A DNA stretch of 33,818 nucleotides from Kofleriaceae bacterium. Its GTDB lineage: Bacteria > Myxococcota_A > Polyangia > Haliangiales > Haliangiaceae. Below are positions 17,485 through 33,818 of the stretch, piece by piece. Location of the stretch: contig JBKJLC010000059.1 of assembly GCA_046597055.1 (NCBI GenBank), forward strand, positions 1 to 33,818, read 5' to 3'. A program made the translations under genes and the position numbers. The stretch's first letter is position 1. Every line of letters starts with the position of its first letter. The notes beneath the pieces were generated by a model. The model did no database searches, was not told where the DNA came from, and saw only the letters and a program-made list of their open reading frames with translations.

Positions 17485-18279
17485 TTAGCGGCCCTTGAAG
17501 GCCGGCTTCCGCTTCTCGGCGAAGGCGCGCGGGCCTTCCTTGGCGTCCTCGGACTGGAAGACCTTCCAGCCGAGCTCGAGCTCGATCTTGAGGGCTTCAG
17601 CCTCTGGCAGCCCCTCGGTCTCCTGGACCGAGCGCTTGATCATCTGCACCGCGAACGGGCCGTTCGCCGCGATCTCACTGGCGACCCGGCGGGCCTCGGT
17701 GAGCGCCTGACCATCGGCGACCACCCGACCGATCAGGCCGATGGCGCGTGCCTCCTCGGCGGCGACGTGGCGGCCGGTGAGCAGCAGGTCCATGGCGTGG
17801 GTGTACGAGATCTGGCGGCGCAGCCGCACGGTCGAGCCGCCCATCGGGAACAGGCCCCAGCGCACCTCGGACACGCCGAACTTGGCCGACTGGCCGGCGA
17901 TCCGGATATCGGTCGCCTGCAGCATCTCGGTGCCACCGGCGATCGCATAGCCCTCGACCGCGGCGATCAGCGGCTTGGCCAGCCGTCGGTGGCGCAGGAA
18001 CGCCTTCCAGTGCAGGTCGGGGTCGGTCTTGAAGCGGGCCGACCACTCGTCGGTCGGCGGGTTGTGCATCTGCTTGAGGTCGGAGCCCGAGCAGAAGTGG
18101 CCACCGGCGCCGGTCAGGATCGCGACCCGGATCTCGTCGTCGCCGTCGATGAGATCCCAGGCGTCGGCGAGCCGGGCCAGCATCTCGAGATCGAGCGCGT
18201 TGCGGGCCTCGGGGCGGTTCATGGTCACCGTCACGACGTGGCCATCCCGCTCGACGAGCAGGTGCGGTGGCTTGTCCAT
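17485..18279 (-). CDS. Enoyl-CoA hydratase/crotonase, EchA19-like (steroid side chain)
   Basis: VTMNRPEARNAL, KPLIAAVEG.AIAGGTE.LQ.TDIR and PMGGS.VRL.RQI closely resemble mycobacterial EchA19 as recalled. Confidence 0.88.
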   Translation of the reverse strand: MDKPPHLLVERDGHVVTVTMNRPEARNALDLEMLARLADAWDLIDGDDEIRVAILTGAGGHFCSGSDLKQMHNPPTDEWSARFKTDPDLHWKAFLRHRRLAKPLIAAVEGYAIAGGTEMLQATDIRIAGQSAKFGVSEVRWGLFPMGGSTVRLRRQISYTHAMDLLLTGRHVAAEEARAIGLIGRVVADGQALTEARRVASEIAANGPFAVQMIKRSVQETEGLPEAEALKIELELGWKVFQSEDAKEGPRAFAEKRKPAFKGR

Positions 18280-18287
18280 TCCGCGAG

Positions 18288-18301
18288 TAGAACACGTTCT
18301 A
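18288..18301. promoter_or_regulatory. KstR-type operator 1 (TAGAACACGTTCTA)
   Basis: Exact match to TnnAACnnGTTnnA, 8 nt from the echA19-like start codon. Confidence 0.8.
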
Positions 18302-18321
18302 ATCTGGCTTGTCACCCGCAC

Positions 18322-18335
18322 TGGAACATGTTCTA
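18322..18335. promoter_or_regulatory. KstR-type operator 2 (TGGAACATGTTCTA)
   Basis: Exact match to TnnAACnnGTTnnA; overlaps the putative -10 (TAGTTT) of the P450 gene. Confidence 0.8.
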
Positions 18336-18344
18336 GTTTCTGCG

Positions 18345-30954: not shown

Positions 30955-30961
30955 GCGGCGG

Positions 30962-32113
30962 CTACAGGCGCTCGATGATCGTGACGTTGGCCTGGCCGCC
31001 GCCCTCGCACATCGTCTGCAGGCCGTAGCGGCCGCCACGACGCTCGAGCTCGTGCAGCATCGACGTCATCAGGCGGGCGCCGGTGGCGCCGAGCGGATGG
31101 CCGAGCGCGATCGCGCCGCCGTTGACGTTGACCTTCGACAGGTCGGCGTCGAGCTCGCGTTGCCAGGCCAGGACCACCGGCGCGAACGCCTCGTTGATCT
31201 CGACCAGGTCGAGGTCGGCCAGGGTCAGGCCGGTCTTCGCCAGCGCGTGGCGGGTCGCCGCGATCGGCGCGGTCAGCATCCAGATCGGATCGTCGCCGCG
31301 CACGCTCAGGTGGTGGATGCGGGCTCGCGGCTTCAGGTTGTGAGTCTTCACCGCCTGCTCGGACACTACTAGCAGCGCGGCAGCGCCGTCGGAGATCTGG
31401 CTCGACACCGCGGCGGTGAGGCGCCCGCCCGGCACGATCGGCTGGAGCGACGCCATCTTCTCGCGGGTCGTGTCCTGGCGCGGACCCTCGTCGGCGCGCA
31501 GCTCGCCGACCGGCGCGATCTCGCGCGTGAAGTAGCCGGCGGCGATCGCGGCCAGCGCGCGCTGGTGGCTCTCGAACGCGAACGCCTCCATGTCGTCGCG
31601 GGTGCACTTCCACTTCTCCGCGATCATCTCGGCGGCGTCGAACTGGGACACGATGCGGTCGCCGTAGCGGGCCTTCCAGCCCTTCGAGCCGCTGAACGGA
31701 TCGGTGAAGCCGAGCGCCTGGGCGCTGGTCATCGCCGACGCGATCGGGATCATCGTCATGTTCTGGACACCACCGGCGACCACGACGTCGGCGGTGCCGC
31801 TCATGACCGCTTGCGCGGCGAAGTGCACCGCCTGCTGCGACGAGCCGCACTGGCGATCGATGGTGACCCCGGGGACGTGGTCGGGCAGCCCGGCGGCCAG
31901 CCAGCAGGTGCGGGCGATGTCGCCGGCCTGGGGCCCGATGCTGTCGACGCAGCCGAAGATCACGTCCTCGACGATGCCGGGATCGATGCCGGCGCGCTCG
32001 ACCAGCGCGCGCAGCACGTGGGCGCCGAGATCGGCGGGGTGGACCGCGGCCAGGCCGCCCTTGCGACGGCCGACCGGGGTCCGGACCGCTTCGACGATGA
32101 ACGCGTCAGCCAT
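30962..32113 (-). CDS. fadA6: Acetyl-CoA C-acyltransferase (thiolase), FadA6-like
   Basis: DRQCGSSQQA, VAGGVQNM..IPI.SAM, EINEAFA, GHPLGATG and MCEGGG motifs; CAGGAG ribosome-binding site. Confidence 0.85.
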   Translation of the reverse strand: MADAFIVEAVRTPVGRRKGGLAAVHPADLGAHVLRALVERAGIDPGIVEDVIFGCVDSIGPQAGDIARTCWLAAGLPDHVPGVTIDRQCGSSQQAVHFAAQAVMSGTADVVVAGGVQNMTMIPIASAMTSAQALGFTDPFSGSKGWKARYGDRIVSQFDAAEMIAEKWKCTRDDMEAFAFESHQRALAAIAAGYFTREIAPVGELRADEGPRQDTTREKMASLQPIVPGGRLTAAVSSQISDGAAALLVVSEQAVKTHNLKPRARIHHLSVRGDDPIWMLTAPIAATRHALAKTGLTLADLDLVEINEAFAPVVLAWQRELDADLSKVNVNGGAIALGHPLGATGARLMTSMLHELERRGGRYGLQTMCEGGGQANVTIIERL

Positions 32114-33152
32114 GGACTGCTCCTGTGTGCGGGGCGCCGTCGAGGACGGCGGTGGCAATGCGCGCGCGGTGCCAGGCGGCGTCGCCCCAGGCGGCGGCCA
32201 GGCTCCACGCGCGCTTCATCCAGAGGTGGAGGTCGTACTCGAACGAATAGCCGATCGCGCCGTGGCACTGGAGGGCGGTGCGGGCGGCGCGGGTGGCGGC
32301 GTCCGATGCGTAGGCCTTCGCCATCGACACGTGGACCGCGCGGTCGGGCTCGCGGCGGGCCAGCGCGTAGGCGGCGCGGTGGACGCACGGCCGGGCCAGC
32401 TCGAGCGCGACGTGGGCCTCGGCCAGCTGGTGCTTGACCGCCTGGAAGCTGCCGATCGGGCGGCCGAACTGGGTGCGCAGCTTGGCGTAGTCGACGGTCA
32501 TATCGATCAGGCGGCGGGCGACGCCGATCAGCTCGGCGGCGGTGGCGAACGCGCCGCGATCGAAGGCGAGGGCCAGACCGGCCCGGGCCCCGGGCCCGGC
32601 CGCGACCCGGGTCGCCGGGCTCGGCTTCCAGGCGACCCGGGCGAGCTTGCGGGCGCCATCGACCGACGGCTGAGCGATCAGCGTCGTGGCACGTGGCTCG
32701 AGCGCGTGGAGCTCGCCGTCGTGCTCGAGGAGCAGCAGCCCGGCGCGCGCGGCGTCGACCACGAACGGCGCGCCGGCGAGCCCGACCGTGAGGATCACCC
32801 GCCCGGCCGCGGCCGCGCCCAGCCATCGATCGACGAACCCGTCGTCGCAGGTCTCGGCGATCAGCGGGATGGCGACCGCGGTGTGCTCGACCAGCGGCTC
32901 GGGCAAAGCCGCGCGACCGGCCTCTTCGAGCACCAGCGCGAGATCGAGCTCGTCGGAGCCCATGCCGCCGGCGCGCTCGGGCGCGGTCATGCCGACCACG
33001 CCGATCGCGGCCAGGTGCGGCCAGGTCGTCAGCGGTGCCTCGGGGGCCGCGTCCCACGCGGCTCGCACGCGGGTCGGCGGACACGCGCGGGCGAGCAGCT
33101 CGCGCACGACGCGCTGCAGCGCGAGCTGCTCGTCGGAGAAGGCGAACCGCAC
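32106..33152 (-). CDS. Acyl-CoA dehydrogenase subunit, FadE32-like
   Basis: RGAFATAAELIG, RTQFGRPIGSFQAVKH and LQCHGAIG..EYDLHLW motifs; directly follows the fadE31-like gene. Confidence 0.85.
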   Translation of the reverse strand: MRFAFSDEQLALQRVVRELLARACPPTRVRAAWDAAPEAPLTTWPHLAAIGVVGMTAPERAGGMGSDELDLALVLEEAGRAALPEPLVEHTAVAIPLIAETCDDGFVDRWLGAAAAGRVILTVGLAGAPFVVDAARAGLLLLEHDGELHALEPRATTLIAQPSVDGARKLARVAWKPSPATRVAAGPGARAGLALAFDRGAFATAAELIGVARRLIDMTVDYAKLRTQFGRPIGSFQAVKHQLAEAHVALELARPCVHRAAYALARREPDRAVHVSMAKAYASDAATRAARTALQCHGAIGYSFEYDLHLWMKRAWSLAAAWGDAAWHRARIATAVLDGAPHTGAVHG

Positions 33153-33158
33153 GTCAGG

Positions 33159-33818
33159 TCACTCCTTGGGCAGTCCGAGCAGCCGCTCGGCGACGACGTT
33201 CTTCTGGATCTCGTTGGTGCCGGCGTAGATCGGGCCGGCCAGCGCGAACTGGAAGCCCTTCTGCCACGCGCCGCCCTCGACGGCATCGGGCGCATCCGGC
33301 GCCAGCTCGGCGAGCGGCCCGAGCAACCCGAGCGCGGCCTCGTGCAGCCGCAGGTCGAGCTCGGACCAGGCCAGCTTGGCGATCGACGAGTCGGCCCCGA
33401 TCGCGGTGCCGGCCGCCAGCCGCGTGACCGACTGCAGCGTGAACAGCTGGTACGCACGCGCGTCCATCCACGCCCGGATCACGGCATCGCGCAGCAGCGG
33501 ATCCACCACGTCGCGCGGGGGCGAATCCTGGTTCCGTTCGCCCGGAGCCGGCCCCGCGTCGGGCTGGAGCGAATCCTGGTTCCGTTCGCCCGGAGCCGGC
33601 CCCGAAGGGGCCGTGTCGAAGGGCGCCCCTCGGGATTGATCACAAGTCTTCAGGTGATCGGAAGCGCTCACCTTTCCCGGTGGCCCTGAGTCGGCGCCGA
33701 AGGCGCCGTGTCGAAGGGCAGAGCGCCAAGGTGCCGCACGTGATCTTCGACGGACTGCCCTTCGACGGCGGGCTCGCTTGCGCTCGCCCTGGCTCAGGGC
33801 CACCGGGAAAGATGTGCG
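33159..33818 (-). CDS. Acyl-CoA dehydrogenase, FadE31-like (5' partial), with an in-frame repeat-derived insertion
   Basis: The last ~115 aa (AYQL.T...VTRLAAG..GADSS..K..WSELD; FALAGPIYAGTNEIQKN) resemble FadE31. The frame stays open through the repeats to the window edge. Confidence 0.78.
   Translation of the reverse strand, partial: RTSFPVALSQGERKRARRRRAVRRRSRAAPWRSALRHGAFGADSGPPGKVSASDHLKTCDQSRGAPFDTAPSGPAPGERNQDSLQPDAGPAPGERNQDSPPRDVVDPLLRDAVIRAWMDARAYQLFTLQSVTRLAAGTAIGADSSIAKLAWSELDLRLHEAALGLLGPLAELAPDAPDAVEGGAWQKGFQFALAGPIYAGTNEIQKNVVAERLLGLPKE
33521..33818. repeat. REP/REPIN-like cluster inside the fadE31-like frame
   Basis: 36-bp direct repeat 33521-33556 / 33569-33604; 19-bp inverted repeat 33672-33690 / 33793-33811; 12-bp inverted repeat 33710-33721 / 33755-33766; GTCGAAGGGC units. 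Confidence 0.85.

Follow-up and report, generated by a model that had tools for sequence, protein, structure and literature searches.

A nearly complete, partly patchwork gene set for likely sterol breakdown in an uncultured myxobacterium

In the portions of the two main surveys used here, aerobic steroid degradation is placed in Actinobacteria and Proteobacteria (Bergstrand 2016, Holert 2018). Those portions of Holert 2018 give hsaC in no other phylum, and those of Bergstrand 2016 term a Corynebacterineae origin speculative and call for more genomes. Within the literature that we searched, sterol degradation has so far been described solely in actinobacteria and proteobacteria. The cluster of Mycobacterium, Rhodococcus, Nocardia and Tsukamurella has in common with the genes described below CYP125, echA19, fadD19, fadE26/27, ltp3/4, Rv3520c- and Rv3521-like genes and the order echA20-ipdA-ipdB-ipdC, and its KstR regulon has in common a KstR-like TetR protein and a 14-bp palindrome, partly at the same genes (parts of PMC1995591, PMC3068626 and PMC4810484). 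The tes/scd pathway of Comamonas testosteroni, Burkholderia, Novosphingobium and Vibrio has the nearer HsaA, D, E, G and F, and the HIP genes are common to both (parts of PMC4810484, PMC5380842 and bioRxiv 10.64898/2026.09.18.752586).

The window, the whole 33,818-nt stretch of DNA that was analysed, is one end of a larger gene set in an assembly of 303 contigs (94% complete, contamination 7.55%). Contigs C48 and C298 overlap the window in a chain, and together with C1 they contribute ipdAB, ipdC, echA20, ipdF, fadD3, fadD19 and ltp3/4 as well as kshA-, kstD-, hsaB- and kstR-like genes. The genes stand in the order given below, with operator-like palindromes among them, and are present in relatives.

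Side-chain genes and the A/B-ring block

An echA19-like enoyl-CoA hydratase gene, assigned to side-chain beta-oxidation, occupies 17485..18279 on the reverse strand. Its product scored 417/316 with PRK07799 and 394/400 with an EchA19 model (scores are written as bits/cut-off, so that 413/450 lies below the cut-off) and is 65% identical to that of the syntenic Nocardia gene. On the forward strand at 18345..19565 is a CYP125-family P450 gene with an intact heme motif, a predicted sterol C26 oxidase. The initial annotation had named both genes, and profile and PDB searches confirmed them in place. The closest solved structure to the P450 is CYP125MRCA, the reconstructed ancestor of actinobacterial CYP125, at 558 bits (E 1e-166) against 348 bits for CYP125 and 350 bits for CYP124 (E 1e-103); its sequence is engineered, and ancestors of this kind sit close to many relatives by construction. 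CYP125MRCA oxidises cholesterol, cholestenone, sitosterol and campesterol, and the strings 'Myxo' and 'proteobacter' are absent from the portion of that text used here (PMC12100521). Two KstR-type operator palindromes lie between the two genes, one at 18288..18301 that matches TnnAACnnGTTnnA and one at 18322..18335, 10 nt 5' of the P450 start; the pair is kept in relatives. Both had been overlooked in the initial annotation.

The genes hsaA, hsaC, hsaD, hsaE, hsaG, hsaF and an acyl-CoA dehydrogenase pair are spaced by -4 to +6 nt, with the single exception of a 394-nt gap in the hsaE-hsaG spacer (23352..23745), filled by a palindromic repeat with inverted arms, related pieces of which occur on 70 contigs. 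All on the forward strand, they encode an HsaA/TesA2-type flavin monooxygenase, the predicted 3-HSA 4-hydroxylase (19562..20755), an extradiol dioxygenase in the HsaC position (20758..21711), an HsaD/TesD-type meta-cleavage product hydrolase with Ser-Asp-His motifs (21708..22538), an HsaE/TesE-type hydratase (22545..23351; TIGR03220 350/409), an HsaG acylating aldehyde dehydrogenase (23746..24663; PRK08300 463/166), an HsaF aldolase (24660..25703; PRK08195 551/229) and the large and small subunits of the heteromeric acyl-CoA dehydrogenase (25700..26866 and 26869..28008). This pair, which was confirmed where the initial annotation had put it, lies 3' of hsaF in many relatives and is a candidate for the last side-chain rounds. 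The annotated hsaA-C-D-E-G-F genes were likewise all found in place, but HsaA (413/450), HsaC (246/450) and HsaD (185/400) fall below the actinobacterial cut-offs; the HsaB, KstD and KstR matches elsewhere in the genome also score below the cut-offs of their models.

In phylogenetic trees HsaA groups with proteobacterial steroid-cluster (TesA2-type) enzymes, and so does HsaD with its counterparts; a myxobacterial plus actinobacterial clade was rejected by the AU test for HsaD (p=4e-6) and for HsaA (p=0.039). The identities of HsaA, D, E, G and F are 51, 50, 58, 71 and 74% to proteobacterial proteins and 47, 34, 40, 60 and 53% to actinobacterial ones, the values for HsaE being to Novosphingobium and Nocardia. 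When plasmids were searched with HsaD, the top 24 matches (40-51%) were proteobacterial, and BphD and actinobacterial HsaD scored lower at about 35-36%.

The dioxygenase belongs to a BphC-like lineage. It scored 299/366 with the BphC model, carries His146, His208 and Glu259 as iron ligands, and groups, at a support of 100, with sequences whose record titles read Kofleriaceae or Myxococcales. Sister to it are enzymes on Rhodococcus and Diaphorobacter plasmids; its nearest named relatives are encoded on plasmids for aromatic degradation, with a best plasmid identity of 46%. It falls outside the HsaC/TesB clade (98/98), and membership in that clade was rejected by an AU test on 20 sequences (p=0.024) that was chosen after the first tree had been inspected. 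Its structure model matches BphC at Z 42.5 (rmsd 1.3 A over 284 residues) and HsaC nearly as well, at Z 41.3. Cleavage of 3,4-DHSA by this enzyme would fit its position and iron ligands. Databases label such a BphC-like enzyme a biphenyl dioxygenase.

C/D-ring genes, linked contigs and KstR-type boxes

About 2.9 kb of the interval (27950-30950) lie outside the pathway and hold a hydrolase/ketosynthase ORF and a gene for a Cys-rich putative lipoprotein; the ketosynthase is absent from this position in three same-genus loci compared. On the reverse strand there follow genes for a FadA6-like thiolase of the C/D-ring stage (30962..32113; PRK07801 704/591; ~70% identical to Streptomyces and Burkholderia cluster genes), a FadE32-like acyl-CoA dehydrogenase subunit (32106..33152), which the syntenic genes of Nocardia, Streptomyces and Burkholderia match best, and the 3' third of a fadE31-like gene (33159..33509), whose 5' part lies at the end of C48. 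The three had been annotated correctly in place; fadE31 runs off the contig end and is interrupted by a genome-wide palindromic repeat on the reverse strand (33506..33818, ~324 nt), which inserts about 108 codons, leaves the frame open and may impair the gene here.

The gene names in the unannotated Nocardia, Streptomyces and Burkholderia records are our assignments, guided by gene order, and those of the PRK models (FadD19-, Ltp3-, Ltp4-, IpdF-, EchA20- and EchA13-type, Rv3520c) are likewise our assumption. Matches above cut-off were obtained for FadD3 (734/657), IpdF-type (412/336), EchA20-type (389/260), FadD19-type (680/543), Ltp3-type (678/514), Ltp4-type (494/419), EchA13-type (424/280) and Rv3520c (363/335). 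The IpdB-like protein matched two CoA-transferase beta chains, which we take to be IpdB, at E 1e-79 and 1e-76, against 1e-15 for glutaconate CoA-transferase. Orthologues of fadD3, ipdF, ipdC, echA20, ipdAB, fadA6, fadE30-33, Rv3548c and Rv3549c are present, as is the actinobacterial cholesterol side-chain set of CYP125, FadD19, FadE26/27, EchA19 and Ltp3/4. Through the Nocardia, Streptomyces and Burkholderia clusters, every gene in Table 1 of PMC5380842, the part of that paper used, has a best-match counterpart except kstR2. With Nocardia and Tsukamurella queries, this 94% complete genome yielded no separate orthologue of FadA5, ChsE1/E2, ChsH1/H2, Ltp2 or FadE34 and none of fadE28/29, and a search for 3-beta-HSD gave no clear gene (best match partial, E 6e-27).

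The initial annotation had proposed a genome search for kstD, kshAB, hsaB, ipdAB and fadD3, and ipdAB, fadD3 and kstD-, kshA- and hsaB-like genes were recovered, but not a clear kshB: its best matches in the genome (38%) stand beside unrelated genes without a box. Boxed KshB candidates occur in genomes G039, G135 and G358. KshA is the best PDB match of a Rieske protein on C298 (E 1.6e-65; next family 1e-20), and the KshA_C domain was matched in KshA-like sequence at E 2e-57 and 3e-38. For a C1 flavoprotein (C1:8323-9978) the best matches are KstD structures (E 4e-105; model 497/789), and the aligned tyrosines, presumably catalytic, are kept. An hsaB-like reductase gene (112/230) stands in a boxed operon on C1, so that both components of the HsaA/HsaB monooxygenase are present in the genome.

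The box TnnAACnnGTTnnA has 18 strict sites in the genome against 0 for a reversed control. Of the same-genus genomes, the 7 that have the ring-cleavage gene each carry 18-44 copies, and 9 of the 10 others carry 0-2. Boxes stand 5' of echA19, fadD19, an Rv3521-like gene and kstR, as in M. tuberculosis. The TetR protein encoded on C1 matches KstR best (E 3e-19; next other named TetR 1.7e-8; model 109/280), and a box lies 82 nt 5' of the start of this kstR-like gene. The genome has a KstR-family TetR protein with TnnAACnnGTTnnA in its own and in predicted target promoters, as in a KstR regulon. The KstR2 motif AnCAAGnnCTTGnT was not found 5' of the C/D-ring genes, its 3 matches all lying within genes elsewhere, and the Nocardia gene in the kstR2 position had no match at E 1e-10. 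An Mla/MCE-type ABC transporter is encoded 3' of two boxes on C1. F420 synthesis genes within the cluster point to an F420-dependent step.

Proposed function and alternative explanations

We consider it likely, at a probability of roughly 0.8, that the gene set equips this myxobacterium to break down external sterols along the aerobic 9,10-seco route, with one predicted KstR-like repressor in control. No squalene epoxidase or oxidosqualene cyclase was found in this genome (94% complete); therefore the degraded sterols would be external, coming either from prey, as the initial annotation proposed, or from detritus. The Mla/MCE-type transporter would import the sterol, the P450 would oxidise C26 to the acid, and FadD19, FadE26/27, EchA19 and Ltp3/4 would start side-chain beta-oxidation, including that of C24-branched plant or fungal sterols. 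Through KstD and KshA, ring B would be opened and ring A would become aromatic, giving 3-HSA. HsaA/B would turn this into a catechol, the substrate for cleavage by the BphC-like dioxygenase; HIP would then be set free by HsaD, and pyruvate and propionyl-CoA would come from HsaE/F/G. Rings C and D would be dismantled by FadD3, IpdF, FadE30/33, IpdC, EchA20, IpdAB, FadA6 and FadE31/32. A steroid acyl-CoA may take the repressor off all promoters, including those of the C/D-ring genes, which are under KstR2 in mycobacteria.

The best score of the dioxygenase with BphC and its plasmid-borne sister enzymes, together with a PDB search in which BphD outscored HsaD for the hydrolase, would suit an aromatic (phenol, biphenyl or dibenzofuran) meta-cleavage operon that adjoins steroid genes by chance. 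We hold this to be very improbable, since the block is tightly coupled 3' of CYP125 and two KstR boxes, its HsaD and HsaA group with proteobacterial steroid-cluster enzymes, relatives carry kshA within the operon between the P450 gene and hsaA with kstD adjoining the block, and block and box co-occur within the genus. In 26 related loci, hsaA is directly 5' of the dioxygenase gene in 25, a box is found in 23 and kshA- or kstD-like genes in 13. The initial annotation had named grouping with biphenyl clades and absence of kstD, kshA and ipdAB as evidence against its reading; the dioxygenase does group so, but kstD- and kshA-like genes and ipdAB are present. Actinobacterial or other DNA misbinned into a myxobacterial genome could be suspected from the contamination of 7.55% and from side-chain genes and an operator that look actinobacterial. 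It is largely refuted: other same-genus genomes have the operon too, with most genes at 75-89% protein identity, each of the 26 related loci carries a Myxococcota or delta-proteobacteria title, and the contig terminates in the host repeat (91 copies on 77 contigs), which the steroid contigs carry, with typical composition (tetranucleotide distance ranks 62-151 of 183). The Myxococcota host suggested initially was borne out as Kofleriaceae-like and not actinobacterial by 26 MYXO-CTERM matches against 0 in 14 control genomes and by the titles in the dioxygenase clade. The multi-PAS kinase and YaeQ flanking genes are present as annotated, and a GG-N10-GC sigma-54-like string occurs near 16659.

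The genes might also serve less than full growth on sterols, namely side-chain trimming, detoxification, or the use of intermediates (C19 steroids, bile-acid products, HIP) from other microbes. The genes not found (kshB, fadA5, chsE1-2, chsH1-2, ltp2 and a clear 3-beta-HSD), the interrupted fadE31, and the 60 of 108 ipdA-positive genomes without an hsaA match at E 1e-100 favour such partial use, as does echA13, linked to cholate use in the part of PMC5380842 consulted. We regard it as unlikely: the assembly (94% complete, 303 contigs) carries genes for both ring-opening stages, for the C26 P450, for enzymes acting on C24 branches and for a lipid transporter behind boxes. A boxed GMC oxidoreductase (61% to its counterpart in the Tsukamurella cluster) and boxed SDR and F420 enzymes are candidates for the missing steps.

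Origin of the pathway and comparison with known systems

The initial mapping to the 9,10-seco pathway holds for the gene set, but not for the dioxygenase, which lies outside HsaC/TesB, and HsaA, D, E, F and G are of proteobacterial type. The pathway looks like a mosaic, in which side-chain genes, IpdAB and the regulator appear actinobacterial and HsaA, D, E, F and G proteobacterial; in the tree of IpdA and IpdB, Myxococcota group with actinobacteria (99/99), apart from proteobacteria. Orthologues of all three of ipdA, hsaA and kstR occur in 44 genomes out of a sample of 401 from the phylum, and A/B- and C/D-ring genes stand together on single contigs of other genomes. More tentatively, Myxococcota may add a third major phylum to the aerobic sterol degraders and have an old pathway form of their own, combining actinobacterial-type side chain, IpdAB and one KstR with a proteobacterial-type A-ring and a separately recruited biphenyl-lineage dioxygenase. 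It was perhaps assembled in or passed through sterol-making myxobacteria, and not solely Corynebacterineae, because 8 of the 44 carriers encode oxidosqualene cyclase. If active, the pathway would add about a tenth of sampled Myxococcota to the sterol sink in soils, sediments and sludge, and the BphC-like substitute for HsaC could escape hsaC-based screens. The set offers direct tests of a second A-ring dioxygenase lineage, a living P450 near the reconstructed CYP125 ancestor, a one-repressor regulon and the F420 cassette.

BphC/DbfB-type dioxygenases of biphenyl and dibenzofuran degraders have the fold and iron ligands in common with the window dioxygenase, but the latter is flanked by genes for a sterol P450 and HsaA and by KstR boxes, with no ring-hydroxylating dioxygenase beside it. 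Compared with the proteobacterial tes genes, it is not TesB-type and is encoded 3' of hsaA, not 5' of ipdA; the proteobacterial references compared have no close counterpart of CYP125, ltp3/4, fadD19, echA19 or kstR. In contrast to the actinobacterial cluster, the host here is Gram-negative, the A-ring enzymes are of other lineages, KstR-type boxes stand 5' of the C/D-ring genes without a KstR2 orthologue, F420 synthesis genes lie inside the cluster, and an Mla-type transporter with two MCE proteins takes the place of the six-gene Mce4 type.

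Host genome and steroid gene content

The window is an entire contig of an 8.38-Mb assembly with 94% completeness and 7.55% contamination, and shares the 72% GC of the remainder. The initial annotation had suggested a Myxococcota host from flanking genes, and this holds: MYXO-CTERM matches number 26 in this genome against 0 in 14 control genomes, and the extradiol dioxygenase at the HsaC position (20758..21711, plus strand) forms one clade with Kofleriaceae records in a tree (support 100). Scanning species genomes for this dioxygenase returned 26 loci, which by record titles belong to Kofleriaceae (5), Myxococcales (7), Polyangiales/Polyangiaceae (5), Myxococcota (2) and delta-proteobacteria (7); the family name given to the host likewise rests on titles of related records. 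Of 41 relatives, 12 have the gene, among them 6 of the 16 other genomes of the same genus.

An echA19-like gene (17485-18279, minus strand) diverges from a tightly packed run on the opposite strand, which extends to 28008 and encodes a P450, HsaA, the dioxygenase, HsaD, HsaE, HsaG, HsaF and two acyl-CoA dehydrogenase subunits. The latter could be tied to neither FadE34 nor FadE28/29 (identity about 37% or less). Genes resembling fadA6, fadE32 and a partial fadE31 occupy 30962 to the window end, and two genes unrelated to the pathway separate the two groups. One (27950-30010, minus strand) is a 686-aa ORF composed of an alpha/beta-hydrolase fragment, a ketosynthase and a further half resembling a ketosynthase; no close copy was found in the host genome, the ORF is absent at the same site in three relatives, and it appears to be a patchwork or an insert that has decayed. 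The other (30151-30950, minus strand) encodes a Cys-rich putative lipoprotein that occupies the same place in the relative G003 (78%) and for which no Pfam or NCBIfam match was found. Far upstream, kaiC-like and kaiB-like genes are followed by a multi-PAS hybrid histidine kinase (2-5327).

The window overlaps host contig C48, which in turn overlaps C298, by 117 identical bases each; the first overlap lies inside a repeat, yet each contig end bears one half of a single gene. C48 carries Rv3521-like, ltp4, ltp3, fadE26/27, a KshA-family gene and ipdF, an F420 enzyme of the Rv3520c family accompanied by npdG and cofE, D, C, G and H, and an Rv3549c-like gene, echA20, ipdA, ipdB, ipdC and echA13. 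On C298 lie fadD19, another gene of the KshA family and one that is distantly KstD-like. Contig C1, unlinked to these three, encodes hsaB-like, fadE30/33, Rv3548c-like and fadD3 genes, a closer KstD-like gene, a KstR-like TetR regulator and an Mla/MCE transporter. Gene names for PRK models and unannotated reference records are those we take to apply or were set by gene order; cofC and cofD were named by sequence and order, without a model hit.

The palindromic repeat lies inside fadE31 (33506-33818 and the C48 end), has 33-nt inverted arms and adds about 324 nt without introducing a stop; fadE31 of relatives lacks it. The genome has 91 copies of its core, spread over 77 contigs; 23 of these copies lie at a contig end. 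An ORF inside the steroid region (C48:6591-7337), which we take to resemble an HUH/Y1 transposase, is a possible mover of these repeats.

Predicted KstR-type operators

The 65-nt spacer between echA19 and the P450 gene contains two palindromes (18288-18301 and 18322-18335) that fit the KstR motif in the available text of PMC1995591. When 11 sites from the four steroid contigs were combined into a matrix, it returned 22 sites of at least 18 bits, a count that includes these seeds; 19 were intergenic, and five column permutations gave 0. A genus scan served as an independent test: of 17 genomes, 8 had 18-44 strict-pattern sites each and the remaining 9 had 0-2, as did the controls. All seven dioxygenase-carrying genomes fell in the high-box group; the eighth member, G012, gave no dioxygenase match. 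A KstR-like repressor would bind these boxes. A sigma-70 promoter scan of 17300-18500 found no promoter.

Elsewhere in the host, boxes precede genes for a GMC oxidoreductase, a protein of hotdog-fold-like type and several uncharacterised secreted proteins (C161:16616-18220, C31:22528-23067, four sites on C70, and C56:40230), all candidates for sterol entry or uptake; the oxidoreductase is 61% identical to one from a Tsukamurella steroid cluster. A boxed operon on C1 includes an endoglycoceramidase-like glycoside hydrolase (4172-5599), which might free sterol from steryl glycosides. Genes for F420 synthesis and recycling lie within boxed steroid operons on C48 (11548-15575 and 18574-20945), together with the sole Rv3520c-type enzyme found. 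This arrangement recurs in two further Myxococcota genomes, G167 and G123, and suggests an F420-dependent step. A search for the nitroreductase-type F420 family matched nothing, controls included, and was therefore uninformative.

Enzyme ancestry and alternative readings

In a comparison with a retrieved set of actinobacterial, proteobacterial and aromatic-degradation sequences, echA19, the P450, ltp3/4, fadE26/27, fadD19, ipdA/B, echA20 and kstR were nearest to actinobacterial copies. For HsaA, D, E, G and F the nearest copies were those of proteobacterial steroid clusters; AU tests rejected a joint myxobacterial and actinobacterial clade for HsaD (p=4e-6) and HsaA (p=0.039). The dioxygenase fits neither pattern: it falls outside the HsaC/TesB clade, beside enzymes of Rhodococcus and Diaphorobacter plasmids, and its placement in a joint steroid clade was rejected (p=0.024). 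This apparent mosaic, dioxygenase included, carries moderate confidence, since the trees have 13-42 rows, some draw on part of the myxobacterial loci, and several branches are long. KshA-like and KstD-like proteins form branches of their own. The IpdAB tree gives no transfer direction, because it has few references (4 actinobacterial, 5 proteobacterial), non-monophyletic myxobacterial rows and weak inner nodes. A single-sequence structural model of the dioxygenase was poor (pLDDT 42), and an alignment-based prediction (pLDDT 95) did not tell BphC from HsaC. G358, another member of the phylum, has HsaC/TesB-type copies in place of this dioxygenase.

In the reading we favour, with a probability of about 0.8, the host degrades external sterols aerobically by the 9,10-seco route, with a single KstR-like switch in control; each enzymatic step is proposed from homology and context. 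An aromatic operon, which would account for the BphC-like dioxygenase, is a very improbable alternative beside the steroid-type HsaA and HsaD. Partial steroid use is unlikely, though less so. On this point the gene search proposed initially succeeded for kstD-like, kshA-like, hsaB-like, ipdAB and fadD3 genes and failed for a convincing kshB; with these queries the host genome likewise yielded no convincing KstR2, fadA5, fadE28/29, chsH1/2, ltp2 or fadE34, and no clear 3-beta-HSD. Mis-binning is scarcely credible: the steroid contigs have ordinary composition and carry the host repeat element.

Spread, sterol source and known systems

Among 401 sampled Myxococcota genomes, ipdA gave matches in 108, kstR in 124 and hsaA in 55; ipdA and kstR occurred together in 97 and all three genes in 44, counts that are not independent events, as 18 of the 44 come from one genus. 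Single contigs of G167, G123, G200, G136 and G203 combine ring A/B and C/D genes with boxes. An oxidosqualene-cyclase-family gene, below the model cut-off yet with E about 1e-203, occurs in 8 of the 44. In genus g27 (e.g. G056, G068, G355) ipdA, hsaA and kstR were found in 18 of 18 sampled genomes and the cyclase-family gene in 8, so its members may combine sterol synthesis with sterol degradation. A lead from G389 and G368, where KstR-like genes lie close to cyclase genes, was dropped because both 55-kb stretches lack a TnnAACnnGTTnnA box. Many members of families f40, f33, f36 and f46 (e.g. G358, G135, G165) have ipdA and kstR with close hsaA absent, and G165, a single-contig genome, gave no dioxygenase match at E 1e-25; these families may open rings A/B otherwise or use HIP only.

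In the host, neither squalene epoxidase nor oxidosqualene cyclase was found, and a cyclase-domain search gave weak partial matches only. Since the genome thus shows no sterol synthesis, prey is a plausible sterol source.

The literature searched (steroid degradation, myxobacteria, Rv3520c, CYP125) yielded no report of steroid degradation in Myxococcota. Myxobacterial and delta-proteobacterial terms had no relevant match in the accessible portions of PMC4810484, PMC5790920, PMC12100521 and a 2026 Comamonas preprint, and the supplementary taxon tables of PMC5790920 may include hits from delta-proteobacteria. In the portions available of the remaining papers, these bacteria appear solely as sterol makers or in passing. 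Predicted boxes in the host also stand before C/D-ring genes, which mycobacteria place under KstR2, according to the accessible text of PMC3068626.
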